The notes under the pieces: generated by a model | The model's database searches: none | What the model was told of the DNA's origin: nothing | What the model saw: only the letters and a program-made list of their open reading frames with translations | Shown: positions 1 through 61,863 of the stretch, in pieces | Position numbering within the stretch: the first letter of the stretch is position 1 | Layout of the letters: each line of letters starts with the position of its first letter | DNA from: Nanobdellota archaeon | GTDB lineage: Archaea > Aenigmatarchaeota > Aenigmatarchaeia > Aenigmatarchaeales > Aenigmatarchaeaceae | Assembly: GCA_018901755.1 (NCBI GenBank) | Contig: JAHIDZ010000015.1 | Location: 65,079 to 129,078 of the forward strand | Direction: 5' to 3' | DNA length: 64,000 nucleotides | Translations under genes and position numbers: made by a program

Positions 1-289
1 CACCTTCACCTGTTTCAAATACTTTCTTTGCATTTTCTTTAGTCATCCAGATTTCATAATATTTTCGTTTTTCAGGTGGTCCACGTGTTGCTTTAACTCT
101 GAATCCAGTCTCACATAGAGAATCATAGATGTCGTTTTTATATTCCAAATCATCAAGAACATGTATTTTAATTGTTGGTTTAAGATAGTCGTTAAATTTA
201 CCTTTTATCGTGCCACCACCAATTAGTACTGGTTTATCTTCTTCTGTAAATGTTATACATATTCCAGAACCAGCAACAGACGCTTTCAT
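1..289 (-). CDS. hypothetical protein, N-terminal part only (the ORF starts with ATG at 289 and runs past the window start)
   Basis: Open minus-strand frame with no stop from 289 to position 1. The translation begins MKASVAGSGICITFTEEDKPVLIGGGTIKGKF. I recognise no family. Confidence 0.4.
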   Translation of the reverse strand, partial: MKASVAGSGICITFTEEDKPVLIGGGTIKGKFNDYLKPTIKIHVLDDLEYKNDIYDSLCETGFRVKATRGPPEKRKYYEIWMTKENAKKVFETGEG

Positions 290-1279: not shown

Positions 1280-2917
1280 ATGGAAACTGCTATCATGAAG
1301 CATGCATTGCTTAATGCCGCACAATATGACGGCAAGGCTAATGAGAATGCTGTTCTTGGAAAAATTTTAAGTGAAATACCAGAAGCTAGAAAAAATATAG
1401 ATCTTGTTAGAAAATCTATTTCAACGATTGTTAAGAAAGTTAATAGCATGACACCAGAAGAGCAGAAAAAATTAATTAAAGGATTTAAGTATGAAAAAGT
1501 TGAAAAGAAAGAACGTGAAGGATTACCACCGTTACAAGATGCTATTGATAGAAAAGTCGTTATGCGTTTAGCACCATTTCCTTCAGGTCCATTGCACATA
1601 GGAAACGCAAAACAATATATCATCAATGATTGGTATGTGAAACACTATCATGGTAAATTGCTTCTAGTTATGGACGATACGATGGGTTCTATGGAAAAAC
1701 AAATTGCAGTCGATGCTTATGATTTAATACCAGCTGGATTCGATTGGCTTGGAATAAAATATGATAAGAAGATAATTTACAAATCAGATCGATTGGAGAT
1801 ATATTACAAATATGCAGAAGATATTATCAAATCTGGCAAAGCTTATGTTTGTGAATGTGAATTTAGCGATTTGCGAAATAATAGAATGGCACAAAAAGAA
1901 TGTGTACATAGAAATCAGAGCATTGAAACTAATCTGAGTAAATGGAATGACATGATTAAAGGAAAATATAAAGAAGGAAGCGCTGTTTTAAGAATTAAAA
2001 CTTCAATGAATGACCCAAATCCAGCTTTCCGCGATCGTGTATTATTTAGAATATGCGATAGAGCACATCCACGTGTTGGAAAGAAATATAAAATATGGCC
2101 ACTTTTAGAATTTTCATGGGCGATTGATGATCATCTACTTGGTATAACACATGTTCTTCGTGGTAAAGAATTAATGATGGAGTCAGAGATGGAACGTTAC
2201 ATATGGGACATATTTGGATGGAAGCATCCTGTGATAATTCATACTGGACTACTGTTTATAGAAGGACTTAAGTTAAGCAAGTCTAAAGCACAACACGAAG
2301 TAACGTCAGGTGAATATTCTGGCTGGGATGATCCTAGAACATGGTCTCTACAGTCGTTAGCAAGAAGAGGATTTGAACCAGAAGCAATAAAGAATTTTAT
2401 AATTGCATTCGGTATAACGCAACATGAATCAAAAGTATCTTTAGATAAAATATATTCAGAAAATAGAAAACTTATTGATCATAAGGCTGAACGATATATG
2501 TTTGTAACTGATCCGATTGAAGTAATTTTAGATAAACTTCCGATGAAGAGTGTGAAAGCACCACTGTTTCCAGGAAAAAGAAAATATAGAACAATACCTG
2601 TAACTAAGAAGATATTTGTTGATAAAATAGACTTTATAGCAAATCGTGAAAAAGAAGTAAGACTTATGCATTTGTGCAACATCAATCTTAATACTAAATC
2701 TAAATTCACAGGCAAGACGAATAAAGATATACCGAAAATACATTGGGTATCTGGTAAACATGTTAAAGTAAAAATTGTTTTAGAAAATGGTAAAACAATA
2801 GAAGGTTTAGCTGAACCCAGTGTTGCTAAAGTAAAACCAGGACAGATGGTGCAGTTTGAGCGTTTATTTTTTGCTAGATGTGATAAGAAGAATTTATTCT
2901 ACTATGCGCACAAATAG
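1280..2917 (+). CDS. gltX: glutamyl-tRNA synthetase, archaeal type
   Basis: Class I HIGH motif (PSGPLHIGNA), KMSKS-like LSKSK and HVLRGKE. Length of 545 aa is typical of archaeal GluRS. Confidence 0.88.
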   Translation: METAIMKHALLNAAQYDGKANENAVLGKILSEIPEARKNIDLVRKSISTIVKKVNSMTPEEQKKLIKGFKYEKVEKKEREGLPPLQDAIDRKVVMRLAPFPSGPLHIGNAKQYIINDWYVKHYHGKLLLVMDDTMGSMEKQIAVDAYDLIPAGFDWLGIKYDKKIIYKSDRLEIYYKYAEDIIKSGKAYVCECEFSDLRNNRMAQKECVHRNQSIETNLSKWNDMIKGKYKEGSAVLRIKTSMNDPNPAFRDRVLFRICDRAHPRVGKKYKIWPLLEFSWAIDDHLLGITHVLRGKELMMESEMERYIWDIFGWKHPVIIHTGLLFIEGLKLSKSKAQHEVTSGEYSGWDDPRTWSLQSLARRGFEPEAIKNFIIAFGITQHESKVSLDKIYSENRKLIDHKAERYMFVTDPIEVILDKLPMKSVKAPLFPGKRKYRTIPVTKKIFVDKIDFIANREKEVRLMHLCNINLNTKSKFTGKTNKDIPKIHWVSGKHVKVKIVLENGKTIEGLAEPSVAKVKPGQMVQFERLFFARCDKKNLFYYAHK

Positions 2918-3820: not shown

Positions 3821-4450
3821 ATGAAATGTGAGATAGATGTTAGGAGAGAAGACGATATCGGTTATACACTAGGTGTTATTGCTGGTGATGGGTTTATTGG
3901 AAAGAATACAGAAACGACAAGAATGATTATGCTATCTGTAAAAGATAAAGAATTTTGTGATAATTTTTCAAATAGTTTGTTTAATATATGCGGCCGAAAA
4001 TATAAGGTTAGTAGGGTTAATAATTATAGATATAGACAAGGTTATTGCTGGGTAACAAGATGTTGTATTCGACAAGTAGTTAACTTTTTTGAAAATTATG
4101 ATATTTATCAATTATCAGAAAATACAGATAAGATCAAGCTAGGTTTCTTAAGAGGTATGTTTGATGCAGAAGGTTGTAGCTTTTGTAAGCTTTATCCTAA
4201 AAGAGGAGGTTATTCAAGAACGGTTGCTGTTTTTAATAAAAATAAAAAATTACTTAATCTGTGTCAAGAATTATTGAATTCTTTCGAAATAAAAACAAGA
4301 AAATTTTCTAAAGATAAGGATGGTGTATATGCACTTCACCTGAGTCTTTCAAAAGAAAATCTAACGAAATTTAGGGATTTGATAAATTTTTCAATCCCGC
4401 GCAAAATTTCAAACTTGGAAACATGCTTAGAGAGTTATACGGGTGGTTAA
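3821..4450 (+). CDS. free-standing LAGLIDADG homing endonuclease-like protein
   Basis: Two LAGLIDADG motifs (LGVIAGDGFIG and LRGMFDAEGCS). The ATG abuts the S28e stop and the 3' end overlaps the L24e start. Confidence 0.8.
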   Translation: MKCEIDVRREDDIGYTLGVIAGDGFIGKNTETTRMIMLSVKDKEFCDNFSNSLFNICGRKYKVSRVNNYRYRQGYCWVTRCCIRQVVNFFENYDIYQLSENTDKIKLGFLRGMFDAEGCSFCKLYPKRGGYSRTVAVFNKNKKLLNLCQELLNSFEIKTRKFSKDKDGVYALHLSLSKENLTKFRDLINFSIPRKISNLETCLESYTGG

Positions 4451-8421: not shown

Positions 8422-9975
8422 TTATCTATATTCTTCTTCTACCCATTCTTTAGCTTTACCTTTTTTATGGGCGCTAGTTCCAAAGAAACCAAAATCTTCT
8501 TCATGTACAGTGAGTAGACCTTTTAATGGGTCGAGCATATGTTGCCGTATTGTTAATTCTTGACGTTTTATTTCAGGACCAAATTCTTTAAGTCCAAAGA
8601 ATTCCAACGGTAGATCTTTTGGAGGAACATTTTTTTCTAGAAACATTGCAATTAATTTTATAGATAAAACACTATCTTGAATTCCTTCTTCACCAGATCT
8701 TTCAAATATAAGCCATGCGTCTTTAAAGCCCTTTTCTCTTAATTCCCAAAGTCTTTCATAGATATACACTTGTGCATCAGATGCTCTTGGGATTCCGAGA
8801 TGTGCTGGGGCATAAGGAACAGGTGCTCCTAAGTGAACTACTTTTACTCGATTTCCTCCTTTCATAGGAAATTTGTTTATCGTCTCTTTTGGATCAATTT
8901 TACTTCCAAGCATATGTTCGAAATCTATAGCAACACCGACCCAATCAGAACCAATGCATTCTGCCAAATAATAAATGTGTAATGGATTTGAAAATCTCAT
9001 ATTTAATTCATGTCCTGGTGATGCCATTGGAGTTTCCATTACAAAATACATTTTACTTTTTTCAAGTTCTTTTTTAAGATTTTGTTCTTTGTATTCGGGT
9101 AATGATGTATTAAAATGTCCCCAGATGTATTTTCCCGCAACTGCAGAAACCCATAATTCTGGTTTTGCAATAAGGTCTGCATCTGATAAATCTTTTCCAA
9201 CAATATTTTTCCATAGGACATCATAACTATTCATCATATACTTTGCAATGATATAATAGGCAAGTCTTTCTGGTCCATATTCACTTTCCTGCGAATTGAA
9301 AAAATCAAATAATTGTCCATCTGCCTCTTCCTTCGAATCCTTCCGCATTTTATCAGCTTCTTCTTTTGGTGGCTGTTTACCTTCATGGGAATAATAATAA
9401 CTTTCAATTTTTTTCTCGAAATAACGATTTTCACCAACTATATATCTTCTCAGCTGTGCAGGCATGTCTTCTCGGTTGATAAATTTCCAGAACCAATCAA
9501 GCAATTTTGGGTTTTCTTCAAATAATTTTCTTAACGGTCTTCCATTAAAATCAACCAAGTCAACTGGTTTAAGATCGTGCCACAATGTAACAAATGGTTC
9601 AGATTCAGAAGAATGTACAAGCATATATTTTGCGCCAAGTTCTCCACTATGTTTTAAATGCAAATAAAGTCTTTCATGAGATAATTTATATTGATCTCGA
9701 TAAGGAGAATCTAAAAACAGAGTAGTTCTTCCGATTGCTTCACATTCGCCATGAATTCCGAATTCAAATCCTTCTTTAATAACTTTTTTCATTGCATCTT
9801 TCAAGCCAGGCTGTCCAAATTCTGTAATTGTTTCTATATCAACTTGTGTAAATTTGGTACCAAATCTAGAAGAATTATAAATCTTTTGATGTATACCTGC
9901 AACAAATTCTGCGCCAGAGCCTTTCTGAGATGCAATTTTAAAATATCCACTGGATATGCCAACAGTATAAGCCAT
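8422..9975 (-). CDS. hypothetical protein (517 aa), possibly a xylose-isomerase-like TIM-barrel fold
   Basis: Long coding ORF with a GISSGYF N-terminus and HLG/FEH motifs. The fold assignment is a weak guess. Confidence 0.55.
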   Translation of the reverse strand: MAYTVGISSGYFKIASQKGSGAEFVAGIHQKIYNSSRFGTKFTQVDIETITEFGQPGLKDAMKKVIKEGFEFGIHGECEAIGRTTLFLDSPYRDQYKLSHERLYLHLKHSGELGAKYMLVHSSESEPFVTLWHDLKPVDLVDFNGRPLRKLFEENPKLLDWFWKFINREDMPAQLRRYIVGENRYFEKKIESYYYSHEGKQPPKEEADKMRKDSKEEADGQLFDFFNSQESEYGPERLAYYIIAKYMMNSYDVLWKNIVGKDLSDADLIAKPELWVSAVAGKYIWGHFNTSLPEYKEQNLKKELEKSKMYFVMETPMASPGHELNMRFSNPLHIYYLAECIGSDWVGVAIDFEHMLGSKIDPKETINKFPMKGGNRVKVVHLGAPVPYAPAHLGIPRASDAQVYIYERLWELREKGFKDAWLIFERSGEEGIQDSVLSIKLIAMFLEKNVPPKDLPLEFFGLKEFGPEIKRQELTIRQHMLDPLKGLLTVHEEDFGFFGTSAHKKGKAKEWVEEEYR

Positions 9976-11667
9976 TTATCCAACACCCATTTTACCTTTT
10001 AAGAATTTGTTAATCATATTAAATTCTCCACCAATAACATTAAGATAATATTTTGTTATTCTATCAGCATAATCTGTTTCATATTGGCCAGGCTTTGAAA
10101 ACATTATACCTTCCATTTTAGGCATTTTCATAGCAGATGATGATCTGCTTATACCACTAAACATAACACGCAACTCTTTCATAAATTTGTCAAGCGCGTT
10201 TTCTTCTTCACCCTTTTTACCAAATAGGAGAGGAAACTCCTTTTTAACAACATCCATTATATCTTCTTGTCCTAGTTTTAATCCTATTATTTCATCAATA
10301 TATCTTTCAAATTCCATTTCTCGACATTTTAATTCAAGCAATTTTACAAGCATTATGTTTTGCGATATTGCATATGCATATACACTAAATGTGATATCTT
10401 CGATTTCACCGATTGTTAATCTTGAGCCTGATCTGAATACATCTATGATGAAAAATGAATAGTATAATTCTGATGGATTTAGTGCAAATCTTTTAGCTTT
10501 CCAATCTGGTAGGATTTGCTCTTCAACAACTTCATCTGCAACTGTTCTTTTTTCTACTGGTCTTTTACATTTCGGACATAGATCTGTTTTTGAAGCATAA
10601 TATTTTTTACAATCACTGCAATAAAATCTTTCATTTGCCAACCACGGATATTCTTTAGCAAGTCCTTTTTTTGGATCTAGTATTAAATTGTCTCTAACAT
10701 AGGAATCGTAAGGATGTATAATAAAATCACCTTCTTTTATAACATCACTTTTTCTTGCTTCAGTAGGTTTCAGGTCTTTCCAGGCCCATATTGTTATATT
10801 GTTTGTATAAGTAGAAATGCCAGCTAAGTCTGAAAATGATTTGAATACATTGGCTCTACCTAGAGCAGATTCAGAACCAAGTTTTGTCATCTTATATCTA
10901 GAAATGTAAGGTTTTAACCAGATTTTATATTCTTCTATTGATTTTTTTCTAGCTGTTTCTAAACCTTTAAGGGTTTCATATCTTCGTTTTACAACGTTTA
11001 GGAATTCTCCTTTCCAGTTTACAAACATTTTATTTTTTGTAACAAGAATAGTTGACTCTGCTTTACTGACATTAAGTTTTTTAGCAACTGGATTAATTTC
11101 TAAATCAGTATCATTCATTGCTTGAAAGTCTGTAATTATTGTAGGCCATCTTTTTGGCATACTAAATAGAGAAAATCCTTCACCAGTGTGCATATCGACT
11201 TGATCAATAAACATTGATCTAAGACTATGTTCATCTTTTTCTGAGAAAAGTTTCATAATTCGTCCATATTTTCTCAAATCGTGTTCAACAAGTTCATAAT
11301 CTGCAACAGCGCTTGCAGCTGAACCAAGACCTTCTTTTATTTGAGCTTCTAATTGTCTTTTGCTAGAAACTGTTTTTTGATAATATTCTGTAAAAGTTGG
11401 AGATATTTCAATCCATTCGTCTATTTTCGAAACATTGAATTTTTCAGTTCCAAGCATGAATACTAGAGAATAATACATAGCAGATGCGATTCCAACTGGA
11501 CCAGTGAAATTAAGTTTTGTAATTTGATTACAGTTTTCTTCTTCATTAACAACTCTGTTATCTGGTCCGTTGCAAAGATAGATACCCATGGTTGGTTTAT
11601 CTGGTACATTAATAGGAATGCCCCATCCCTTTCCATTTGTGAAATCAAAAATAGGTTTATCTATCAT
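9976..11667 (-). CDS. hypothetical protein (563 aa) with an internal zinc ribbon
   Basis: CSDCKKYYASKTDLCPKCKRP zinc ribbon. The start overlaps the stop of the upstream small ORF (ATGA), and the gene abuts the downstream 517-aa gene. Confidence 0.55.
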   Translation of the reverse strand: MIDKPIFDFTNGKGWGIPINVPDKPTMGIYLCNGPDNRVVNEEENCNQITKLNFTGPVGIASAMYYSLVFMLGTEKFNVSKIDEWIEISPTFTEYYQKTVSSKRQLEAQIKEGLGSAASAVADYELVEHDLRKYGRIMKLFSEKDEHSLRSMFIDQVDMHTGEGFSLFSMPKRWPTIITDFQAMNDTDLEINPVAKKLNVSKAESTILVTKNKMFVNWKGEFLNVVKRRYETLKGLETARKKSIEEYKIWLKPYISRYKMTKLGSESALGRANVFKSFSDLAGISTYTNNITIWAWKDLKPTEARKSDVIKEGDFIIHPYDSYVRDNLILDPKKGLAKEYPWLANERFYCSDCKKYYASKTDLCPKCKRPVEKRTVADEVVEEQILPDWKAKRFALNPSELYYSFFIIDVFRSGSRLTIGEIEDITFSVYAYAISQNIMLVKLLELKCREMEFERYIDEIIGLKLGQEDIMDVVKKEFPLLFGKKGEEENALDKFMKELRVMFSGISRSSSAMKMPKMEGIMFSKPGQYETDYADRITKYYLNVIGGEFNMINKFLKGKMGVG

Positions 11668-15532: not shown

Positions 15533-16489
15533 TTATTTTATTGGTATCATTTTTGCAATATTATATGCAAGTGGCCACGGAACGGCATTTCCGATTTGTC
15601 TATATTGTGATGAAATGGATCCTTCAAAGATAAAATCATCGGGAAAATTTTGAAGTCTTGCAACTTCTCTTACAGTCATCCTTCTTTTCAGATTTGGATG
15701 CGGTATTATAACAGGCCCTCCTGTTCCGCCACCTCTACCAACTATTGTTGGAGAAGGCTCATTCCATTTTGTTGCACGGTTTCCTATATGTCCGTTTATC
15801 TTAACTTGATGTTCAGTTCCGTGATGGTTTGGTATATCTCCATCAGTTTTTTCAGGAATTCCTTTTAACCCATCTTTTACTGTTTTCCACAGTGGAAGAT
15901 TATCTTTTCCATCTTTGGAATGCGTCGGATTAGGGTGTATTATTTTTGGTTCAATATCATTTCTTGTTCCAAGTATTATGATTCTTCTTCTTGCCTGTGG
16001 AACACCATAATCCGCAGAATTAAGTATTTTAAAATTAACAGTATAGCCAATTGAAATTGCATTTTCAAGTTCCTTTAAAATAATCTTTAATACCTTTCCA
16101 GTTTTTTTAGCCCGATCTTTAGAAGTTTCATAACCTCCGGCTGAACATAATCCGACAACATTTTCAGCAACGAAATATTTCGGTTCCTTATCCCTAATAA
16201 TACGAAGAAGTTCAAGGTATAATTTATTTCTTTTGTCTTCTGTGTGTCTATATGGATTAGCGATTGAAAATCCCTGACATGGAAATCCACCAATAACTAT
16301 ATCGGCATTAGGAATTTCCAATGATGGAATCTTTTCTATATTGGTGCAAATTGGCCTATGTTTGAAGTATTTTTCATATGTTTTACATGAATCTGAATCA
16401 TTATCATTGGACCAGACTATTATGTGTCCAGCTTTAACAAATCCGAGATCCATCCCACCTGCACCACAAAATAATGATATTATTTTCAT
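15533..16489 (-). CDS. dcm: DNA (cytosine-5)-methyltransferase
   Basis: Motif I FCGAGG, motif IV GFPCQGFS, motif VI ENV (FVAENVVGL) and motif X QIGNAVP. Confidence 0.9.
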   Translation of the reverse strand: MKIISLFCGAGGMDLGFVKAGHIIVWSNDNDSDSCKTYEKYFKHRPICTNIEKIPSLEIPNADIVIGGFPCQGFSIANPYRHTEDKRNKLYLELLRIIRDKEPKYFVAENVVGLCSAGGYETSKDRAKKTGKVLKIILKELENAISIGYTVNFKILNSADYGVPQARRRIIILGTRNDIEPKIIHPNPTHSKDGKDNLPLWKTVKDGLKGIPEKTDGDIPNHHGTEHQVKINGHIGNRATKWNEPSPTIVGRGGGTGGPVIIPHPNLKRRMTVREVARLQNFPDDFIFEGSISSQYRQIGNAVPWPLAYNIAKMIPIK

Positions 16490-17218: not shown

Positions 17219-17587
17219 TTATTTCAGATCATGCTCCCAGATTCTGATGACTTTCCATCCCTTCTTTCTGAGAATACAGTTTACTTTTCTGTCTCTTTTT
17301 ACGTTCCGTGCTATCTTAGGCAGCCAGTATAGTCTATTTGATTTAGGTGCTCTATAGTGCTTTGGGCACTTGTGCCAGAAGCAACCGTCAATAAAGAGGG
17401 CTATATTATATGATTTGCTGGCATAATCCGGTCTGCCGTAAATGCCTTTAGGCTGGTATGAGAAACCAAGCCTTTTCATGAGTTTCTTTATACTGAGTTC
17501 TGGCTTGGTCTTAGATGATTTGATACGGGACATGTTATAGCTACGCTGGGCTCTTGTATGCACATCTGTCATAAAAATATAAGACAC
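17219..17587 (-). CDS. vsr: very-short-patch repair endonuclease (Vsr)
   Basis: YNMSRIKSSKTKPE...FIDGCFWHKCP...RIWEHDL matches Vsr. Vsr is the functional partner of Dcm. Confidence 0.85.
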   Translation of the reverse strand: MSYIFMTDVHTRAQRSYNMSRIKSSKTKPELSIKKLMKRLGFSYQPKGIYGRPDYASKSYNIALFIDGCFWHKCPKHYRAPKSNRLYWLPKIARNVKRDRKVNCILRKKGWKVIRIWEHDLK

Positions 17588-18599: not shown

Positions 18600-19790
18600 C
18601 CAAGCCCTTTTCGGTCCGGTAATTTCAGCAGGCTTAGAATGATAATAATTAACCGTTATGGTTTTTATATCTATCTTGCTATATAGTTTGCTATATAGTG
18701 TATTTAAATCCTTTTGGGTGCAATTATACAATATGAAAATGGTGAAACAATCATATGCACAAAACTGGTCAGCATACAACAAAGCTCAGATGAATGAGAA
18801 ACAGCTATTCATGGAACTATTATGCGATTTGTGCAACGATGCTGAAGAACCGGAGTATGTATTCGGAAGACTTAAGATACCAGTTGCTGATATTTTATTC
18901 TGCAGTGCTTTTAAGATATATTCCGGCTATTCTGGTAGAAGATTTACAACAGATATGAGAACTGCAAAGGAAGACAACTACATCAGTAAAGTTCCGCATT
19001 ATAATTCGTTGTTTAATTTTTTGAAGAATCTTAATACATCAGCTATTCTTATGAAAATGATACAGAAATCAGGGCTTTCGTTAAAAGACGTTGAAACAAA
19101 ATTTGCTATTGATGCATCTGGATTTTCAACAACGAGATACAGAAGATGGTTTGATTTCAAATACGGTCATGAAAGGGACTTCAGAATATGGGTGAAAGCA
19201 CATGTAGTTTGCGGAGTAGGAACGAACATAGTTACAGCTGTTAGGCTGTCTGAAGCGAGGGCACACGATAATAAATTTTTCAAGGAGCTTATTAATGATA
19301 CTTCATCAAATTTCAATGTCTGCGAGATGTCAGCTGACAAAGCGTATATGTCAAGAAATAATCTTGAATTGGTTGATAGCCTTGGCGGAAAAGCATACAT
19401 ACCATTCAGATCTAATGTAACAGGAAAACAAAGAGGTTCTAAGCTGTGGGGTAAAATGTATCATTATTTCAAATATAACAATGAGGATTTTATGAAACAC
19501 TACCACCTTAGATCAAACGTCGAATCAACCTTTTCAATGATTAAACGAAAATTTGGTGATACTGTTAGAAGCAAAGATAAAACAGCACAATTTAATGAGA
19601 TTCTATGCAAGATTTTATGTCATAATATTTGTGTTGTTATACATGAAATGCACGAAATGGGTTTCTATAAGAAGACGGAATGGGCAAGTTAGTATTATCA
19701 GGTAAAAATTTATTCAAAAAGAAAAAGAGTTTAAGGACGAAATCCGATTTCTCGTTAAGGACAATTGTCCGATTTCGCCCTATCTATTAT
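18600..19790 (+). mobile_element. IS4/IS5-superfamily insertion sequence (boundaries approximate)
   Basis: Single DDE transposase ORF flanked by GC-rich segments carrying GGTCC/GGAC-GAAA motifs in inverted orientation (near 18603-18626 and 19737-19780). The terminal inverted repeats are imperfect and not firmly delimited. Confidence 0.45.
18733..19692 (+). CDS. DDE transposase, IS4/IS5 family
   Basis: NWSAYNKAQ N-terminal motif, DDE residues in DASGF, SADKAY and ESTFSMIKRKFG (E-x6-K/R). The start is taken at MKMVKQ (18733) rather than at the track's 18658. Confidence 0.8.
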   Translation: MKMVKQSYAQNWSAYNKAQMNEKQLFMELLCDLCNDAEEPEYVFGRLKIPVADILFCSAFKIYSGYSGRRFTTDMRTAKEDNYISKVPHYNSLFNFLKNLNTSAILMKMIQKSGLSLKDVETKFAIDASGFSTTRYRRWFDFKYGHERDFRIWVKAHVVCGVGTNIVTAVRLSEARAHDNKFFKELINDTSSNFNVCEMSADKAYMSRNNLELVDSLGGKAYIPFRSNVTGKQRGSKLWGKMYHYFKYNNEDFMKHYHLRSNVESTFSMIKRKFGDTVRSKDKTAQFNEILCKILCHNICVVIHEMHEMGFYKKTEWAS

Positions 19791-27251: not shown

Positions 27252-27992
27252 ATGATACTTTCAATGGAAAGATTTAATGAAAAAATTATTATTGAAAATA
27301 GTATGCAGAGAAAGCTATTTCTAGAAATTAAGAAAATGGAAGGTTTGAGTCAAAGGAAGCTTGCAAAACGGTTAAAAATAAGTCGAAACAGCATTAAAAA
27401 CTGGGCAAGTGAGGATAGAAAATTACCGAAATTTATTTTCGAGGAAATATTAGAAAAGTTTCCATGGGCATCGGAATATAGAAATTATGTACATGGCACC
27501 CTTCCTAGAAACTGGGCTCAGATTAAGGGTGGTAAGATTCGAAGTAAGATGAAGAATAATTTAACAAATGATGATAGAGTAAAGGGATTTAGGCTGGGCA
27601 GATTGGGGATTAAAAGAAAAACAGTTGGGCCAAATGGCGAACTGATGTTTAATGATGGCGAAAAAAGAATTGCTGAGGAGTTGATACGAAATAAAATTAA
27701 CTATGTGTATGAGCCGGTAATTTTACTTGGAGAAAATTATGCTATCCCAGATTTCATTGTGAATAATACTGTTATCGAAAGATGTGGTTATCGCGATTGG
27801 AAGCCGTATTGGTCGAATATTAAGAGAAAGATTAAAAGATTAAAGAAATATGAAAATTATAAAATCATTATTTTAGTCCCATCAAAAAATTTTGATATGG
27901 TAGTTAAAATTTTAAAAAATGTCAGAGGCATCACTATATTGAAGGAAGAAAATTTGGAAGCACTTTTAGATATTTTGAAAATATACCATTGA
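27252..27992 (+). CDS. HTH fused to a PD-(D/E)xK (DUF559/Vsr-like) endonuclease domain; homing-endonuclease-like
   Basis: Its N-terminal HTH (LFLEIKKMEGLSQRKLAKRLKISRNSIKNWASEDRKLPKFIFEEILEKF) aligns with the N-termini of the LAGLIDADG genes in this window. The C-terminus IAEELIRNKINYVYEPVIL...IPDFIV...IERCG resembles the DUF559 nuclease core. Confidence 0.55.
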   Translation: MILSMERFNEKIIIENSMQRKLFLEIKKMEGLSQRKLAKRLKISRNSIKNWASEDRKLPKFIFEEILEKFPWASEYRNYVHGTLPRNWAQIKGGKIRSKMKNNLTNDDRVKGFRLGRLGIKRKTVGPNGELMFNDGEKRIAEELIRNKINYVYEPVILLGENYAIPDFIVNNTVIERCGYRDWKPYWSNIKRKIKRLKKYENYKIIILVPSKNFDMVVKILKNVRGITILKEENLEALLDILKIYH

Positions 27993-28063: not shown

Positions 28064-28166
28064 GGGTCCATAAGTTAAATTTTAATTTAACTGGAATGCT
28101 CAGTTTGGCTAGAGCACCTGCCTCTTAAGCAGGGGGTCGCGGGTTCAAATCCCGTTGGACCCACCA
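28064..28166 (+). tRNA. tRNA-Lys (anticodon CUU) with a 25-nt intron between positions 9 and 10; CCA encoded
   Basis: Acceptor GGGUCCA/UGGACCC, D-stem GCUC/GAGC, anticodon arm CCUGC-CUCUUAA-GCAGG and T-arm GCGGG-UUCAAAU-CCCGU. The intron at 28073..28097 (AGUUAAAUUUUAAUUUAACUGGAAU) forms an 8-bp hairpin. Confidence 0.78.
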
Positions 28167-42068: not shown

Positions 42069-42798
42069 TTATTTACCAAACTTCTTTTTCTGGGCAAAAT
42101 ACCATTTCATTATTTTATCAAATTCTTTTTTAGAGAAATCTGGCCATAATGTGTTGGAAAAGTATATTTCAGCATAAGCTGATTGAAACAATAAAAAGTT
42201 TGATAATCGATGATAGCCGCCTGTTCTTATTACGAGGTCTACCGGTTTTTTAACAAGCAAGAATTTATTAAAGGCATCTCCAGCGATTGGTATTTTTTTT
42301 ATTCCTCTTTTCAATAGGTTATTCATAGAAGCGATTATTTCAAATTGACCACCATATGCAAGAAGAATATTTAATACACTTTTTGTATAATTTTTAGTAT
42401 TAATCATAACTTCTTTTGCAGTTTTTTTAACATCTGAACGCCATAAATTATGATTACCAAGAACATTAACTTTTATTTGATCCTTTTTAAATTCTTTGTT
42501 TTTTGTTAATTTTCTAAGATTGTCCATGTAGACTTTCCATAGATAATTTAATTCCTGCTTATCTCTTCCTAGATTTTCGGTTGATAGAGCATATACGCTA
42601 ATCATTTTTATTTCAGGATATTTTTTAGACCATTTCAAGAAATTTTCTAAAGTTTTTGCTCCAGCCTGATGGCCTTGTAAAGTCGCTTTATTTTCTTTCT
42701 GCGCCCATCTGCGATTTCCATCGGGTTTATTGTTTGCTCAACAGAAGCTAAGCAAATATCAATGCCACATGGATACCGCTTGATCCATCTTTGTTCAT
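42069..42798 (-). pseudogene. uppS: undecaprenyl/di-trans,poly-cis-prenyl diphosphate synthase (cis-prenyltransferase) disrupted near the 5' end by a roughly 28-31 nt frameshifting insertion
   Basis: The main ORF (TTG start at 42638) carries DLVIRTGGYHRLSNFLLFQSAYAEIYF and YALSTEN. In-frame upstream lies PDGNRRWAQKENKATLQGHQAGAK, the catalytic DGNRRWA motif, preceded immediately by TGA. An N-terminal fragment MNKDGSSGIHVALIFA (42798..42751) sits in another frame and ends at TAG. Confidence 0.55.
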
Positions 42799-42806
42799 AA
42801 CATATA

Positions 42807-43616
42807 TCACCATCTAAATTTTGAAGGTTGCAGTCTGCATATCATTCTTTGTGTATTTACCTTTTTATAATAACATTCATATTCTATATCTTTAAGCGTA
42901 TTATTGTAGAAATCTGTCAGTGATTTATTATGCAAAAGTATCGAAAACTCATTTCTTTTATGATATATGCATAATTTATGTGAATAATTATTTTTTAATA
43001 GTTGAACAATTTGTTTGGCGAGTATTTCGTTTTTTAAAGAAGATGCCACTAAAATATTATCTTTCAATTTAATTTTACCATTGCTTCCTTCATCAATAAA
43101 ACATGCTCTTAAGATGGAGTTTTTCCAGCTTGGATTTTTTAGAGCAAGTGCAATTATTTTTTTAGGAAGTTTCCTTCTTTCAAACCCATAATGATTTATT
43201 AGTAAATTTGATGCTACAGAAGATAGCCCGTATGATTTTACACCGTTTTGATTGCTATGGTATAGAGCGGTGCCCATTCCAATTTTTTTAACTAAATCAG
43301 AAAACATTTCTTGTTCCATGTTGTTGCGCGTTTCATAATAAAAGGAGTTTCCCCTTCCTACGGTGCCATCAAATAAAGTATGTGCTATTATTTCGGCGTG
43401 TTCTGGCATTTCTTTATACGGAAATTTATTAAGTATAAAATTTATTTTCGGGTAGTTAAATATGATTATGTGCGATTCTATAGATTTTTTTGATATTTTA
43501 AGAACGTCAATCCATTTAAGGAATATGTTAATCGTTGGGTGTCTATGACCATTTTCATAGTGAGATATGCGTCCTTTTTTAATTTGTATTAATTTTGCTA
43601 TGGCTTTCTGTGTCAA
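42807..43616 (-). CDS. HTH (XRE-like) fused to a LAGLIDADG homing endonuclease-like domain
   Basis: N-terminal QKAIAKLIQIKKGRISHYENG HTH. LAGLIDADG motifs IIAHTLFDGTVG and LRACFIDEGSNG. Confidence 0.75.
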   Translation of the reverse strand: MTQKAIAKLIQIKKGRISHYENGHRHPTINIFLKWIDVLKISKKSIESHIIIFNYPKINFILNKFPYKEMPEHAEIIAHTLFDGTVGRGNSFYYETRNNMEQEMFSDLVKKIGMGTALYHSNQNGVKSYGLSSVASNLLINHYGFERRKLPKKIIALALKNPSWKNSILRACFIDEGSNGKIKLKDNILVASSLKNEILAKQIVQLLKNNYSHKLCIYHKRNEFSILLHNKSLTDFYNNTLKDIEYECYYKKVNTQRMICRLQPSKFRW

Positions 43617-43740
43617 TTTCAGTTCATTTTTTTTAGAAACCAGAAGTTTTTTAAAATATGGCGTTATTATAACCCTGCTTCGTTGAGAGGCTTCCCACCA
43701 ATGAATTAAATTATTGTTGGTTGGTATTAAATCACCATTA

Positions 43741-43860
43741 TGGTGCGGGAGGCAGGATTTGAACCTGCGAATGAACTAATCAACTGGGTCCTAAGCTTCG
43801 CTCAAGAATAAACGTATTTAATCTTGTCCAGCGCCTTAGACCTAGCTTGGCAACTCCCGC
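43741..43860 (-). tRNA. tRNA-Leu (anticodon UAG) with a 31-nt intron at the anticodon-stem position 30/31 (or 31/32); CCA encoded
   Basis: Minus-strand read GCGGGAG-UU-GCC...GGC-G-CUGG[ACAAGAUUAAAUACGUUUAUUCUUGAGCGAA]G-CUUAGGA-CCCAG-UUGAUUAGUUCAUUC(variable arm)-GCAGG-UUCAAAU-CCUGC-CUCCCGC-A-CCA. Removing the intron gives a perfect CUGGG/CCCAG anticodon stem with G37. The D-arm and long variable arm match archaeal tRNA-Leu. Confidence 0.7.
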
Positions 43861-44480: not shown

Positions 44481-45224
44481 ATGAATAACATTGATAAAAA
44501 TAAGGTATTACGTCTGTATAAAGATGGGTATACATTAGCACAGATTTCTATAAACACTGGACTAAGTAAAACTACAATTTATTATCATACGCGGAAGCAA
44601 TTTGGGAGAAAATATAAGCTCATAACGATTTCAGATAACAGAGAGAAAATTGGTGAATTCATTGGTGTTTTTACAGGAGACGGGTATTTCATTAAGGATA
44701 AGATAGGACATTACAAAACAATGATAACTGTTTCGATTAAAGCATCTGAATACATAAAGCACTTAGATACGATTTTTACAGAACTGTTTTCTAAATCCCC
44801 ACTTATTATCAAAAGACTTAAATATAATACAGTCGAACTTCGATACGATTCTAAAGAAATATACGAATTGATAAAAAACTATTTGTTTTGGGATGGAAAG
44901 AAACATAACTCAGTTAGACTGCTGGTAATTGAGCACGATAAGGAATTTCTTACAGGATTCTTAAGAGGTTGCCTAGATACAGATGGTCATGTTCATAAGA
45001 ATTATAAAAGAATATGCTTTTCTACCACATCTCTATTTTTGGCGAACCAGCTTTCTTCTATTTTAACTAATCTTGGTTTTGAGAACAAAATTCTAATAGC
45101 AAGAGATAAGAGATTGAATAGAAAATTGTTATATAATGTAAGATTGTTGGGAGAAGAAGCTATTAGATTGATTAAAACAATTAAACCAGGAAATCCTTCA
45201 AAGAGAAGAGATTGGTGCGAGTGA
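44481..45224 (+). CDS. HTH fused to a LAGLIDADG homing endonuclease-like domain
   Basis: N-terminal HTH (YKDGYTLAQISINTGLSKTTIYYHTRKQ). LAGLIDADG motifs IGVFTGDGYF and LRGCLDTDGHV. The last 9 nt overlap the acceptor stem of tRNA-Gly on the opposite strand. Confidence 0.8.
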   Translation: MNNIDKNKVLRLYKDGYTLAQISINTGLSKTTIYYHTRKQFGRKYKLITISDNREKIGEFIGVFTGDGYFIKDKIGHYKTMITVSIKASEYIKHLDTIFTELFSKSPLIIKRLKYNTVELRYDSKEIYELIKNYLFWDGKKHNSVRLLVIEHDKEFLTGFLRGCLDTDGHVHKNYKRICFSTTSLFLANQLSSILTNLGFENKILIARDKRLNRKLLYNVRLLGEEAIRLIKTIKPGNPSKRRDWCE

Positions 45225-45303
45225 GGGGATTTGAACCCCTGTTGTAAACTTTTTGCGAAATTCTTGGCAAGCTTACGTACTGGCCAGACTATACGACACT
45301 CGC
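45213..45303 (-). tRNA. tRNA with a 14-nt intron at the canonical 37/38 position, most likely tRNA-Gly (anticodon GCC); CCA encoded
   Basis: Minus-strand read GCGAGUG-UC-GUAU-AGUCUGGCCA-GUAC-G-UAAGC-UUGCCA[AGAAUUUCGCAAAA]A-GUUUA-CAAC-AGGGG-UUCAAAU-CCCCU-CACUCGC-A-CCA. UUGC of the loop can pair with GCAA in the intron, giving a BHB-like helix flanked by 3-nt bulges. Confidence 0.62.
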
Positions 45304-55304: not shown

Positions 55305-56384
55305 GCCCGTTATTATTTTAAGATATGGCAGTTGAGTTTTTATGCACCTTTTTGAGCAATGCAACTCTTGCGCTAATTTACCATGTGTTTCATTATTTTC
55401 AGCTCTATCTTCTTTGCTTTTACCGAGTATCATGATTTTTTCTGGAGGCTTATATGGTGTGTATGAATTGTCTTTTCTTATTAGTGTCATAGATACCATC
55501 ATGTTTTTCATATATAATAACATTCTGTAGTTTTTTCCAACATAAACTTTTTCTCTAAACATATCTGCTTTACTAAGTATATCAAATGCGAATGCAATTT
55601 CTTCAGGTTTTTTATATTCGTTTGTAATATTTTGTTCCATCCACCAAAAGATTTCTTCAATATCTTTATCACAAGAATCAATTGCTTTTGAGGCATCATT
55701 GAGACTATTAGATTTGAATATTATTCTAATAGCTTCGAAAATGTTTATACCTCTTTCTCTGAATCCAATTATTTCAGTATGTGTTACTTTTTTTCTATTA
55801 GTTATTATTATTTGTAGATCATTTATTGCAGATCTTAAATCTCCGCCAGAACTTTCTGCTATTCTTACAATTATATCATTGTCTACTTCTACACCTTCTT
55901 TAGCACATATTTCTCTTAGTTTTTTACCAATTGATAATGTTCCAATTCTTCTAAATTGAATTAATGTGCAGTAGCCTCTTAATGTTCTGAGACCTTTATC
56001 ATATGCATCGTTAGCAGTAAGTATTACAGGAAATTTGCTGGTTTTAATAAGATTTATTATTTCAGTAACAGTTCCTTTGTCAGTATAATTATCAATTTCA
56101 TCTACAACTATTATTCTTTTTGCACCAAGCAGAGACATCATTGTTGAAGATGATTTTATTTTTTTTACTTCTTCTATTTCAGATGCGTGAACTTCGGTTA
56201 TATTTATTTTATTATCAATTGATATTACCTGTGATATAATTGTTTTTCCAATACCAGGTGCACCATAAAGAAGAATCGCTTTTCCAGTTTTGAATGTTTT
56301 AATATATTCTACAATATTTGCCAAAGCTGTAGAATTTCCAACAATGTCTGATACTTTTTTTGGTTTATATCTGTTTACTAACAT
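55296..56384 (-). CDS. rfcL: replication factor C large subunit
   Basis: NRYKPKKVSDIVGN, Walker A GAPGIGKT, Walker B VVDEID and SRC-like region. The start overlaps the stop of the upstream LAGLIDADG gene by 7 nt. Confidence 0.8.
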   Translation of the reverse strand: MLVNRYKPKKVSDIVGNSTALANIVEYIKTFKTGKAILLYGAPGIGKTIISQVISIDNKINITEVHASEIEEVKKIKSSSTMMSLLGAKRIIVVDEIDNYTDKGTVTEIINLIKTSKFPVILTANDAYDKGLRTLRGYCTLIQFRRIGTLSIGKKLREICAKEGVEVDNDIIVRIAESSGGDLRSAINDLQIIITNRKKVTHTEIIGFRERGINIFEAIRIIFKSNSLNDASKAIDSCDKDIEEIFWWMEQNITNEYKKPEEIAFAFDILSKADMFREKVYVGKNYRMLLYMKNMMVSMTLIRKDNSYTPYKPPEKIMILGKSKEDRAENNETHGKLAQELHCSKRCIKTQLPYLKIITGLD

Positions 56385-57373
56385 CGTGATACCCCTACTA
56401 TTGCTCTCATATTATTTGCTCTTTTAATACGGTTTGGATGTTGCAATGGCGTATTGTTTAAAAATGTAGGAATAGAATCAACCTTTAAAGAAAAATCGTA
56501 TGTGATACCAAATTCCTTTACCCTTGTAGATATCTTTCCAGATTGCATATTCAAGCGTTCGGTAAATAATTTTAATTCTTCTAGAAACATTCTGTCTGCT
56601 TGGGCGAATATAATTTTTTTATCGGGTTCATATATACAACCATCGGCATCGAAAAACCCTGCGATAAAGGCATTTTTGATTTCTTTTGAACCATTATATA
56701 TAATATCCGGTATTTTTAGTTGTCCTTTCTTTTTACCCATTGGTATACCGCATATTTTATTAAGAAAAATAAACAACACCTTAGACTGTATGTAAATTTC
56801 AAAGCATTTGGAATTTGTTTTATATATATTAGCTTTCAAATCAAATTGATTATTGATAAATTTGTTGAATTTATTAGCAAATTTTACCGTGTCTGAAGCT
56901 ATTTCAATCATGTATTTGAAATTTCCAGTTCTCATTTTTGGTTTCCATATATCTACAAGACAACCATCACCTATGATATAACCGATAATGTATGACAGTT
57001 CTTCTGTAATTTCTTTTGGAAGTTTTACTATTTTACCCTTAGCCACAGAAAAATACTCATTTTCTTTGAATGCAGATTCAATTATTTTGTTTTTTTCATC
57101 TTCTGATTTTCTGCAAACTCCTTTCCAAATATTTATTAGTTGAAAGAATTTCGATATGGGTATTGGTGAAGTTCCGTTAATCCAATTTGAAACTGTTCTC
57201 CTCGGAACGCCAAAAGACATCGTTGTAAGTTTAATAATTCCCTTCCCATGCTCCTTCTTTATTTCAGAATATAAATTTTTAGTTATGTTACTTATATCAC
57301 ACATTCTAATTTCATCATTTCTATCGTAATTAGACAAAACCATAAAATAGTTTGGGATTTTAATAATTATCAC
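56378..57373 (-). CDS. HTH fused to a LAGLIDADG homing endonuclease-like domain; GTG start
   Basis: N-terminal HTH-like region (GVPRRTVSNWINGTSPIPISKFFQLI). LAGLIDADG motifs IIGYIIGDGCLV and FIAGFFDADGCIY. It sits between rfcS and rfcL. Confidence 0.8.
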   Translation of the reverse strand: MIIIKIPNYFMVLSNYDRNDEIRMCDISNITKNLYSEIKKEHGKGIIKLTTMSFGVPRRTVSNWINGTSPIPISKFFQLINIWKGVCRKSEDEKNKIIESAFKENEYFSVAKGKIVKLPKEITEELSYIIGYIIGDGCLVDIWKPKMRTGNFKYMIEIASDTVKFANKFNKFINNQFDLKANIYKTNSKCFEIYIQSKVLFIFLNKICGIPMGKKKGQLKIPDIIYNGSKEIKNAFIAGFFDADGCIYEPDKKIIFAQADRMFLEELKLFTERLNMQSGKISTRVKEFGITYDFSLKVDSIPTFLNNTPLQHPNRIKRANNMRAIVGVSRC

Positions 57374-57377
57374 CTAG

Positions 57378-58346
57378 TTATTCCTTTCTGAACAGTGCAA
57401 ATTGTGCAAGCAAACTTTCCAACTGTATTTGTTCATTACCACCTTGGTTGATTCTGAATTCAAATTCTCCAACCTTTTCAATAAGATTTACTTTTTCTTT
57501 TTCTGTTAAATCGATACTGTATATTTGCTGCATTATCTGTTTTATTATATCTTGCCCACAAATTCCATCTTTTAAAATCATATTATTTAAAATTTTTCTT
57601 GCTTCTAAGAAATTTCCTTTTAATGAAATTTCAAGCATATTTTTTACTTCTTTTGGCTCTGCGATTGAAGCTACATCATATATGGCTTTCTCGGTGATAT
57701 TTTTAGTATTAATTGCGGCAGTTTGAAGAATGTTTATTGCTTTTCTAATATCACCTTCAGATAATTTGCATATTGCATCTATTGCATCTGAATCTGCACT
57801 TACCTTTTCCATTCCGATTATCAGATCGAGCCGTTTCTTTATACTTTCATCTGAAATTGTTTTAAATCTAAAAACACAGCATCTAGACTGCAATGGTTCT
57901 ATTATTTTTGAAGAATAATTGCATGATAGGAAGAATCTGCACGAATTACTATAGCTTTCCATTGTTCTTCTTAGTGCATTTTGCGCGTCAGCTGTTAGTG
58001 CATCTGCTTCATCTAGAAATATTATTTTATACGGTATGTTTCCGACAGATTTTGTTCTTGCGAAATCTTTTACTTTTGATCTAATTACGTTAATTCCTCT
58101 TTCATCTGAAGAATTAAGTTCAAGGAAGTTCTGTCTCCAGTTGCTTCCAAATAGCTTTTTTGCTATTATTATTGATATTGTTGATTTACCACACCCGGCA
58201 GGTCCTGCGAACATTAGATGTGGGATTTGTCGAGAATCAACAAAAGCTGAGATTCTTTCAATTATGTTTTCTTGCCCAACAACATCTGAAAATTCAGTTG
58301 GTCTGTACTTTTCGGTCCATATTTGATATTCAGTCATAGTAATCAT
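57378..58346 (-). CDS. rfcS: replication factor C small subunit, no intein
   Basis: WTEKYRP, Walker A GPAGCGKST, DEAD-like FLDEADALT, and SRC motif (SRC in LQSRCCVFRF). Confidence 0.92.
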   Translation of the reverse strand: MITMTEYQIWTEKYRPTEFSDVVGQENIIERISAFVDSRQIPHLMFAGPAGCGKSTISIIIAKKLFGSNWRQNFLELNSSDERGINVIRSKVKDFARTKSVGNIPYKIIFLDEADALTADAQNALRRTMESYSNSCRFFLSCNYSSKIIEPLQSRCCVFRFKTISDESIKKRLDLIIGMEKVSADSDAIDAICKLSEGDIRKAINILQTAAINTKNITEKAIYDVASIAEPKEVKNMLEISLKGNFLEARKILNNMILKDGICGQDIIKQIMQQIYSIDLTEKEKVNLIEKVGEFEFRINQGGNEQIQLESLLAQFALFRKE

Positions 58347-61786: not shown

Positions 61787-61863
61787 GCCTCGGTAGTTCA
61801 GTCGGTACGAATGCTCGCTTGGTAAGTGAGAGGTCGTGGGTTCAATTCCCACCCGAGGCTCCA
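61787..61863 (+). tRNA. tRNA-Thr (anticodon GGU), no intron, CCA encoded
   Basis: GCCUCGG-UA-GUUC-AGUCGGUAC-GAAU-G-CUCGC-UUGGUAA-GUGAG-AGGUC-GUGGG-UUCAAUU-CCCAC-CCGAGGC-U-CCA. Confidence 0.9.

Follow-up and report, generated by a model that had tools for sequence, protein, structure and literature searches.

The cis-prenyltransferase gene uppS (positions 42798..42069, minus strand) of a Nanobdellota archaeon is interrupted, just before the segment encoding its catalytic PDGNRRWA motif, by 31 nucleotides (nt) that are very probably a spliced bulge-helix-bulge (BHB) intron of the uppS pre-mRNA. The gene lies in a 64,000-nt stretch of the GenBank assembly GCA_018901755.1 (contig JAHIDZ010000015.1, positions 65,079 to 129,078 of the forward strand), hereafter the window, to which all positions refer unless another locus is named. 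The window has a G+C content of 31.7%; its core genes, which encode TBP, TFB, MCM, RFC, RNA polymerase A'' and aIF2-beta, are archaeal, and its closest named relatives are metagenome-assembled genomes (MAGs) of Candidatus Aenigmatarchaeota, a DPANN lineage. On the comparative evidence presented here, the seemingly 'broken' uppS is most likely intact.

In the process that we propose, the transcript would fold so that UCCAU.UGG in exon 1 pairs with CCG.AUGGA in exon 2, enclosing an AUUG/CAAU helix between two bulges. The tRNA-splicing endonuclease EndA would cut at both bulges, and the tRNA ligase RtcB would join the exons, restoring the reading frame, the active-site segment (...HVALIPDGNRRWA) and a cis-prenyltransferase of 232 amino acids; left unspliced, the mRNA would yield only a 16-residue peptide. 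Both enzymes would also be needed for the intron-bearing tRNA genes of the window, from which their presence in the genome is deduced. An earlier note on this DNA had offered three other explanations of the interruption (an assembly or sequencing indel, a recent pseudogenisation compensated by a paralog, or a small inserted element), and did not consider an RNA-level BHB intron, whose anatomy the insert has.

Anatomy of the split uppS gene

The exon-1 frame opens at ATG 42798, encodes MNKDGSSGIHVALIFA and ends at a TAG, and the segment encoding PDGNRRWA (PDGNRRWAQKENK...) resumes at 42725 in the +1 frame relative to exon 1; the sole start listed for the long downstream frame is TTG 42638, past the catalytic motif. 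The split just upstream of DGNRRWA, the frames, the TAG and the late TTG had been described in the earlier note and proved correct when re-read from the sequence. Its estimate of 28-31 nt for the interrupting stretch can be refined to exactly 31 nt (42757..42727, ATTTGCTTAGCTTCTGTTGAGCAAACAATAA), the width in alignment columns of the gap in intron-less relatives, with a border that allows a 1-nt slide and gives the same product either way. Both frames are closed by the insert: the exon-1 frame stops at intron offset 7 and the exon-2 frame at offset 17.

Deletion of 42757..42727 produces a 699-nt open reading frame (ORF), the 232-amino acid product of which matches the Pfam profile PF01255 over positions 1-219 of 219 (E 3e-63, 213.7 bits); a full-length match that includes the N-terminal DGNRRWA segment is obtained only after the 31 nt have been removed. 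Exon 1 (42758..42798) runs from ATG to GCA TTG AT and encodes MNKDGSSGIHVAL plus the first two bases of an Ile codon, and its coding capacity (..IH[VIL][AG]LI) is common to all alleles, intron-bearing and intron-less. Exon 2 (42069..42726, beginning A CCC GAT GGA AAT CGC and ending with the stop at 42071..42069) encodes PDGNRRWA and the remaining enzyme. The predicted mRNA junction is GCA UUG AU/A CCC GAU GGA (protein ...HVALI/PDGNRRWA), in the longer sequence ...GCAUUGAU/ACCCGAUGG... (also written GCATTGAT/ACCCGATGG), with a predicted junction peptide of ...GIHVALIPDGNR. The motif GGTGAT (42806..42811, minus strand), which lies 7 nt upstream of the uppS ATG and is kept in the relatives read, resembles a Shine-Dalgarno (SD) sequence, a role deduced from complementarity to the 3' end of archaeal 16S rRNA.

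The insert is not an indel of assembly or sequencing, because the same 31 nt occur in three assemblies of this genome, the window included, and in a divergent allele. They are identical in the assemblies from JGI, ENA/MEGAHIT (L009) and Logan (L010), the latter two of which match the window without a mismatch over 3.5 kb and 2.4 kb, respectively. They recur at a uppS locus from a different sequencing run (L002, SRR22387764), where they are joined to an exon 2 only 77% identical in DNA, and homologous inserts are present in four further lineages from other samples. Logan contigs are built with k = 31; since exon 2 of L002 departs from that of the window after only 18 shared nt, the L002 intron cannot be put down to a chimeric join. 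The window does come from a metagenome assembly, and some of the relatives are short, low-coverage contigs; against the recurrence just described, we give an artefact virtually no credence.

The gene might instead be a pseudogene, or encode an inactive, N-terminally truncated protein, with the function supplied elsewhere. DPANN archaea have reduced genomes and are often host-dependent, and gene callers do yield a 178-amino acid uppS product without DGNRRWA (P0002); P0009 and the uppS calls at L012 and L014 are fragments of the same kind, without the catalytic motif. Between the window and L002, the two closest intron-bearing alleles, the proportions of differing synonymous and nonsynonymous sites in exon 2 are, however, 0.75 (saturated) and 0.10, a sign of strong purifying selection on this exon. 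Although their proteins diverge by about 45%, all intron-bearing lineages retain the start codon and SD-like motif, an open, in-frame exon 1 and a complete spliced ORF; the catalytic motif is intact upstream of any possible internal start. Compensatory changes uphold the RNA structure described below, which would be unexpected in a decaying locus. No further cis-prenyltransferase motif, which the earlier note had proposed to look for as a sign of a compensating paralog, occurs in the 64-kb window, the part of the genome in view. Pseudogenisation is in our judgement very unlikely.

The predicted bulge-helix-bulge structure and its conservation

RNA folding of the region gives, as the minimum free energy (MFE) structure, an exon-exon helix, a 4-base pair (bp) helix between two 3-nt bulges and a 10-bp hairpin within the intron. 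The whole element, comprising the intron and the outer-helix exon flanks, spans 69 nt (42711..42779; this and the parts that follow are on the minus strand), with an MFE of -27.2 kcal/mol (z = -5.1) that was reached by none of 200 shuffled sequences. Its central helix, formed by AUUG (42760..42763) and CAAU (42729..42732), is present in both the MFE and centroid folds and lies between the 5' bulge AUA (42757..42759), adjoining the intron hairpin, and the 3' bulge AAA (42726..42728), adjoining the exon helix. The inner hairpin (42733..42756) consists of UUUGCUUAGC and GUUGAGCAAA closed by a UUCU loop. The outer helix pairs UCCAU.UGG of exon 1 (42765..42773) with CCG AUGGA of exon 2 (42717..42724), the latter within the P-D-G codons, in 3 + 5 bp of exon-exon pairing. 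This helix has a free energy of -14.1 kcal/mol in the window allele versus -2.3 to -3.6 kcal/mol in three intron-less alleles: the exon codons of the intron-bearing alleles are chosen so that exon 1 pairs with exon 2.

In the canonical tRNA-intron layout, position 32 pairs with the third-from-last base of the intron, and on this basis we applied the rule that each bulge is cut after its second nucleotide. The predicted cuts fall between 42758 and 42757 in the 5' bulge and between 42727 and 42726 in the 3' bulge, excising exactly 42757..42727 and coinciding to the nucleotide with the alignment gap, which the homologs define independently of any fold. At a given pair of sites, a BHB whose inner helix has at least 10 bp is expected by chance with a probability of ~8e-7 (13.6 matches per ~1.8e7 pairs in shuffled sequences). 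Because BHB-like patterns are common by chance in AT-rich DNA, the motif alone proves nothing; the argument from the motif alone was dropped, and the case is made from this positional coincidence and from comparison among related loci.

Truncated UppS calls and homologs of the adjacent helix-turn-helix (HTH) gene, traced to their contigs, supplied the majority of the useful relatives; protein-pattern scans of metagenomes and genomes gave few uppS loci. Six uppS lineages, only about 55% identical in protein, carry an intron at the identical site, between the second and third bases of the Ile codon preceding PDGNRR. Its length is 31 nt in the window and L002 (which have the same central helix, AUUG/CAAU), 30 nt in L012 (CUUG/CAAG), 29 nt in L014 (CUUG/CAGG), 28 nt in L015/L016 (CUUG/CAAG) and 29 nt in L008, an uncultured archaeon of about 55% protein identity (GCUU/GGGU). 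The central helix keeps the same register in all six, the AUA bulge is invariant, and the 3' bulge reads AAA, AAU or UAA. The lengths span all three residues modulo 3, each intron has a stop in the exon-1 frame, and six intron-less lineages (L001, L003/4/7, L006, L013, L017 and L018) read I-P/I-D-G-N-R-R-W directly across the junction. Two further N-terminally short calls considered as interrupted genes (P0094 and P0116) were rejected, as both are intron-less with late start calls.

Pairing statistics were computed on the five distinct sequences. Standard pairs fill 94.5% of the pair cells, a value reached by none of 500 column shuffles and falling to 30-49% when partners are slid by one to three columns, and 10 of 22 pairs have changed on both sides. 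The central helix is paired throughout, with three of its four pairs changed on both sides; the inner hairpin has 9-10 bp in every lineage, with 94% of cells paired and six pairs changed on both sides. RNAalifold recovers the same BHB core unprompted, and a covariance model of the element scores 73-85 bits on uppS sites (80 bits at the window element), with no match beyond uppS in the window or the other loci.

L015/L016 carry a second BHB intron 13 nt downstream of the first (31 nt, central helix AUGG/CCAU, inner helix of at least 9 bp), and removal of both restores ...DIHLALIPDGNRRWARKRNK.... The two introns, of 28 nt and 31 nt, lie at 1120..1300 of L015 and 950..1117 of L016; the AUGG strand of the second central helix uses exon bases that also belong to the intron-1 outer helix, so that the two structures may fold in a set order or exclude each other.

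The intron-bearing alleles also bear on translational recoding, in which the RNA would remain uncut and the ribosome would hop or shift frame over the insert, as in bypassing of the T4 gene 60 type. The window has a GCU (Ala) codon before the TAG and a GCA 13 nt downstream in the exon-2 frame, with a hairpin between them, and L012 has an Ile/Ile codon pair. There is, however, no matching landing codon in L014, L015/L016 or L008, so that same-amino-acid pairs exist in only two of the five distinct alleles, and the exon-2 frame of L008 is closed all the way to the Pro codon. A hop would add three to five lineage-specific residues before the invariant PDGNRRWA that are seen in no intron-less homolog; a single frameshift is impossible in the window, where both frames close inside the insert; lengths of 28, 29, 30 and 31 nt would need different shifts in different lineages; and it is the base pairing that is conserved, not the codons. 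Recoding is in our view highly improbable.

Of the three readings in the earlier note, a small inserted element comes closest; the note's suggestion that the stretch might recur as a miniature repeat did not hold, since the 31-mer is present as a single copy in the window at up to three mismatches. A palindromic DNA insertion with no RNA processing (like a miniature inverted-repeat transposable element or another mobile element) would fit the inverted repeat in the insert, its patchy presence among close relatives and the recombination mosaic in which it lies. Against it, the 31-mer is also absent from viral contigs, the covariance model finds nothing but uppS, and the conserved pairs include exon-intron (central helix) and exon-exon pairs, which are relevant only in RNA. 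There is no target-site duplication: the repeat ATGGTGAT is present in all lineages with or without the insert. As a candidate target-site duplication around the HTH gene, the same repeat was rejected, as it represents the end of the upstream ORF (...W-stop) plus the GGTGAT SD-like motif and stands upstream of uppS in the relatives read. We rate the chances of a DNA-level element of this kind as slight. Self-splicing group I and group II introns were discarded as well; Rfam gave no family match in 42600..42900 at E values up to 10, and 28-31 nt are far too short for a ribozyme core.

Positive controls for the cleavage rule are provided by tRNA genes of the window with introns at non-canonical positions. 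The tRNA-Leu(UAG) gene (43744..43860, minus strand) has a 31-nt intron with a strict hBHBh' motif (43827..43797) in the 5' strand of the anticodon stem; spliced by the same rule, it is identical to the intron-less ortholog in L004. The tRNA-Lys(CUU) gene (28064..28166, plus strand) has a 25-nt BHB intron (28073..28097) after position 9, and the same rule yields a complete cloverleaf sequence. Since tRNA genes in the window carry such introns, the cell must have an endonuclease that handles BHBs at non-canonical places. No convincing similarity supported a common origin of the uppS intron, the two tRNA introns and the second intron of L015.

Both tRNA genes were missed by ARAGORN. The tRNA-Leu(UAG) gene was found by Rfam only; for tRNA-Lys(CUU), Rfam matched model positions 10-63 only, and weak opposite-strand Rfam matches (HPnc0260, Plastid-ycf2) evidently represent this gene read backwards. 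A tRNA-Trp(CCA) gene (45216..45303, minus strand) has about 14 extra nt in the anticodon loop region, whose motif was not resolved by the BHB scanner, set to inner helices of 3 bp or more.

Several observations weigh against a spliced BHB intron. BHB-like motifs are not enriched in the AT-rich window, where the scanner found five matches with an inner helix of at least 10 bp versus 13.6 in shuffled sequences. The outer helix departs from the textbook form: every lineage has a C-C mismatch or an unpaired C at the first position (C 42764 in the window), making the motif mildly relaxed and not a strict hBHBh'. The central helix of L008 consists mostly of G-U pairs and is missing from the L008 MFE fold, and the covariation comes from only five distinct, related sequences. 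Neither an EndA nor an RtcB gene was found among the window ORFs scanned. Splicing of the uppS transcript is itself something that we infer from sequences; with these points counted, we still hold it to be highly likely.

A screen of the window for ORFs that an intron might fuse returned mostly adjacent same-frame genes; stricter settings ranked uppS first, with the rest resembling noise. The most promising other candidate, an intron at 57389..57338 fusing two ORFs of ~320 codons, was rejected in favour of three separate, complete genes (RFC-small, LAGLIDADG_3 and RFC-large).

Comparison with known short introns

The closest known counterpart is the intron in crenarchaeal cbf5 pre-mRNA (Watanabe et al. 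2002; Yoshinari et al. 2006; Yokobori et al. 2009, PMC2738675), where BHB introns of 16-44 nt, often with relaxed motifs, have been gained and lost (PMC2738675). cbf5, first described in 2002, has been named as the sole case of a BHB intron inside an archaeal coding sequence (PMC2738675, PMC7714728), and papers of 2020-2025 still cite no other, among them one from 2025 on the splicing endonucleases of archaea (PMC12397907). In the literature searched, we found no link of BHB introns to undecaprenyl or cis-prenyltransferase genes, and no mRNA introns in Aenigmarchaeota/DPANN.

Like the cbf5 intron, the uppS intron is short (28-31 versus 16-44 nt), free of an ORF, located at one conserved site in a coding sequence and present or absent by lineage, in a host with many non-canonical tRNA introns. 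It differs in that uppS encodes a lipid-carrier enzyme and not an RNA-modification enzyme, and in occurring in DPANN/Aenigmatarchaeota and not in TACK archaea; moreover, a pair of introns 13 nt apart occurs in one uppS lineage, some features hint at recent exchange between lineages, and uppS splicing is predicted. Read as a BHB intron, the uppS insert works like the cbf5 intron but stands outside the cbf5 family of Desulfurococcales and Sulfolobales. With the non-canonical BHB introns of archaeal tRNAs (Marck & Grosjean 2003; Fujishima et al. 2011; PMC5829648) it shares motif geometry and the cleavage rule; here, however, the substrate would be an mRNA without a tRNA body, with an outer helix built from codons of the most conserved motif of the enzyme.

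An mRNA has also been identified as a BHB substrate in Haloferax volcanii, where an intron in the 5' untranslated region of the HVO_1309 mRNA is cut by the splicing endonuclease in vivo and in vitro (PMC7714728). The uppS transcript is predicted to be such a substrate as well, but the HVO_1309 intron lies in an untranslated leader, whereas excision from uppS would be required for the protein to be made. In the mature-looking HAC1 and XBP1 mRNAs of eukaryotes, a protein endonuclease recognises stem-loops and excises a very short intron, after which a tRNA-type ligase seals the exons and the frame is changed. All four features (a short mRNA intron, a protein endonuclease, a tRNA-type ligase and a change of frame) would be shared by uppS, but the endonuclease and its recognition motif are unrelated, and splicing there is a regulated stress switch. 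Splicing of HAC1/XBP1 by IRE1/RtcB is mentioned in PMC13149111.

If true, uppS would be the second archaeal gene reported to have a BHB intron in its coding sequence, in a metabolic gene and a different superphylum, extending mRNA splicing by the tRNA endonuclease beyond one crenarchaeal gene. The alleles, with their introns of 28-31 nt, relaxed outer helix and a two-intron form, would constitute a natural set of variants for studying how EndA recognises non-tRNA substrates, and a concrete case of intron gain, loss and transfer for ideas on how BHB introns move. Because gene callers reduce uppS to a fragment lacking its catalytic motif, metabolic reconstructions of DPANN archaea could wrongly score lipid-carrier synthesis, glycosylation and envelope capacity as missing or pseudogenised. 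uppS is probably essential, and other 'frameshifted' genes in such genomes deserve a check for BHBs.

Intron history and the neighbouring genes

In a distance tree of UppS, the intron-bearing alleles form two clades (56-60% identical to each other) plus the outgroup L008, with intron-less alleles interspersed, and the intron-1 sequences of all lineages align with one another. The intron appears old because lineages with a protein identity of about 55% have homologous copies of it at one site; its distribution is most simply explained by ancient presence followed by several precise losses.

Upon this history a recent exchange seems to have been superimposed. The window and L002 are identical at 70 of 70 positions across the intron and whole BHB, against 77% identity elsewhere in the gene (0.768^70 ~1e-8), and in the distance tree L002 lies nearer to L001 and L006, both intron-less, than it does to the window. 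A second contig from the same sample (L011) ends about 18 nt before L002 begins, and is homologous to the window from 43741 onward only. Comparison of 42700..43741 with L011/L002 (SRR22387764) shows no homology upstream of 43741, identity of 85-97% and then of 65-78%, 97-100% from about 42880 to 42709, and ~77% over the remaining uppS. This pattern suggests that recombination breakpoints flank the HTH gene and the intron; the intron probably passed between the window and L002 lineages on a tract exchanged recently by recombination or gene conversion.

The gene within this mosaic (42807..about 43727, minus strand), located between tRNA-Leu and uppS, encodes a Pfam HTH_3 domain followed by a C-terminal part that suggests a resemblance to monomeric LAGLIDADG homing endonucleases. 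An AlphaFold2 (AF2) model of this part, built from seven homologs, has a pLDDT of 71, and in a Foldseek search with the model the top matches were I-DmoI, I-SceI and I-Tsp061I (E 4e-4 to 3e-2, TM about 0.57 on the target). All of the homologs keep the motifs FDGT and CFIDEGS; no Pfam LAGLIDADG match was obtained, nor any significant sequence match to the LAGLIDADG_3 genes of the window or to PDB sequences. The HTH gene lies beside uppS in five of six intron-bearing and one of six intron-less lineages, the exceptions being L008 (intron, no HTH gene) and L013 (HTH gene, no intron). In the closest intron-less relatives it is missing from this position: tRNA-Leu is directly beside uppS in L004, and L006 and L001 have unrelated genes there.

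Intron and gene may form a cooperating mobile unit, a possibility we consider doubtful. The putative endonuclease would cut intron-less uppS at or near the conserved site encoding ...IIPDGNRRW, the BHB intron would disrupt this site and protect its carrier, and repair of the double-strand break would copy the nuclease gene, exon 1 and intron into the recipient. Such a unit would explain the near-identical tract shared by the window and L002/L011, which begins in the 3' part of the HTH gene and stops where the BHB ends, whereas the rest of uppS shows saturated synonymous divergence, as well as the distribution of the HTH gene among lineages, the 31-nt tRNA-Leu intron with no counterpart in the HTH-less relative, and the fact that the two remaining intron-bearing tRNA genes of the window also adjoin an HTH or LAGLIDADG gene. 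Against this stand L008 and L013, which break the association; moreover, the protein may be a regulator of the WhiA type, and the association may stem from shared ancestry.

A precedent is cyanophage psbA, for which Zeng, Bonocora and Shub (2009) reportedly described collaborative homing, in which an ORF-less intron cooperates with a homing endonuclease gene that stands by itself beside the target gene. The uppS locus is similar in its ORF-less intron, adjacent free-standing gene with a predicted LAGLIDADG fold, co-distribution of the two and mosaic tract of high identity; it is unlike psbA, where the intron is a self-splicing group I phage intron, and here the association is imperfect (L008, L013) and the nuclease putative. 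If true, the mobile unit would be the first homing-like mechanism of DNA mobility for short ORF-less BHB introns.

Three free-standing LAGLIDADG_3 genes are found elsewhere in the window (3821..4450 and 44481..45224, plus strand; 56378..57373, minus strand), of which one separates the genes of the small and large RFC subunits and another adjoins tRNA-Trp, an intron-bearing gene. Counting LAGLIDADG_3 and HTH genes together, each intron-bearing gene of the window has such a neighbour, and the intron-less tRNA-Thr gene (61787..61863) has none. The neighbour of tRNA-Lys, directly upstream (27252..27992, plus strand), encodes an HTH_3/HTH_19 protein that has only the HTH domain in common with the protein encoded beside uppS; on visual inspection, the C-terminal half of the tRNA-Lys neighbour (..YEPVILLGENYAIPDFIV..ERCGY..) resembles a PD-(D/E)xK nuclease motif, a putative assignment.

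Three genes at these loci have no ATG, GTG or TTG start but an in-frame ATA 3-6 nt after a GGTGAT SD-like motif: the HTH gene of the window (at 43616..43742, minus strand) and the intron-less uppS genes of L001 (~130..160) and L004 (~1495..1535). In the first, a conserved N-terminus (IHWWEAS...) lies upstream of the listed TTG, and for the intron-less L001 and L004 uppS genes NCBI called a later ATC. The archaea of these loci may initiate at ATA.

The Aenigmatarchaeota MAG STD1_92 (GCA_028715225.1) contains two different uppS loci on low-coverage contigs (L006 and L007), which share 84% and 78% identity with the window, respectively, and have the same gene order downstream; these are probably two strains binned together, and not paralogs. 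Elsewhere in the window, two ORFs of 517 and 563 amino acids (8422..9975 and 9976..11667, minus strand), with no significant Pfam domain, share a frame with one stop between them, and may be two neighbouring genes or a single gene interrupted by an in-frame stop. A C5 cytosine DNA methylase (15533..16489, minus strand), a Vsr-type mismatch endonuclease (17219..17587, minus strand) and a DDE transposase (18658..19692, plus strand) are encoded within 4 kb, in what looks like a small mobile or restriction-modification-associated island.

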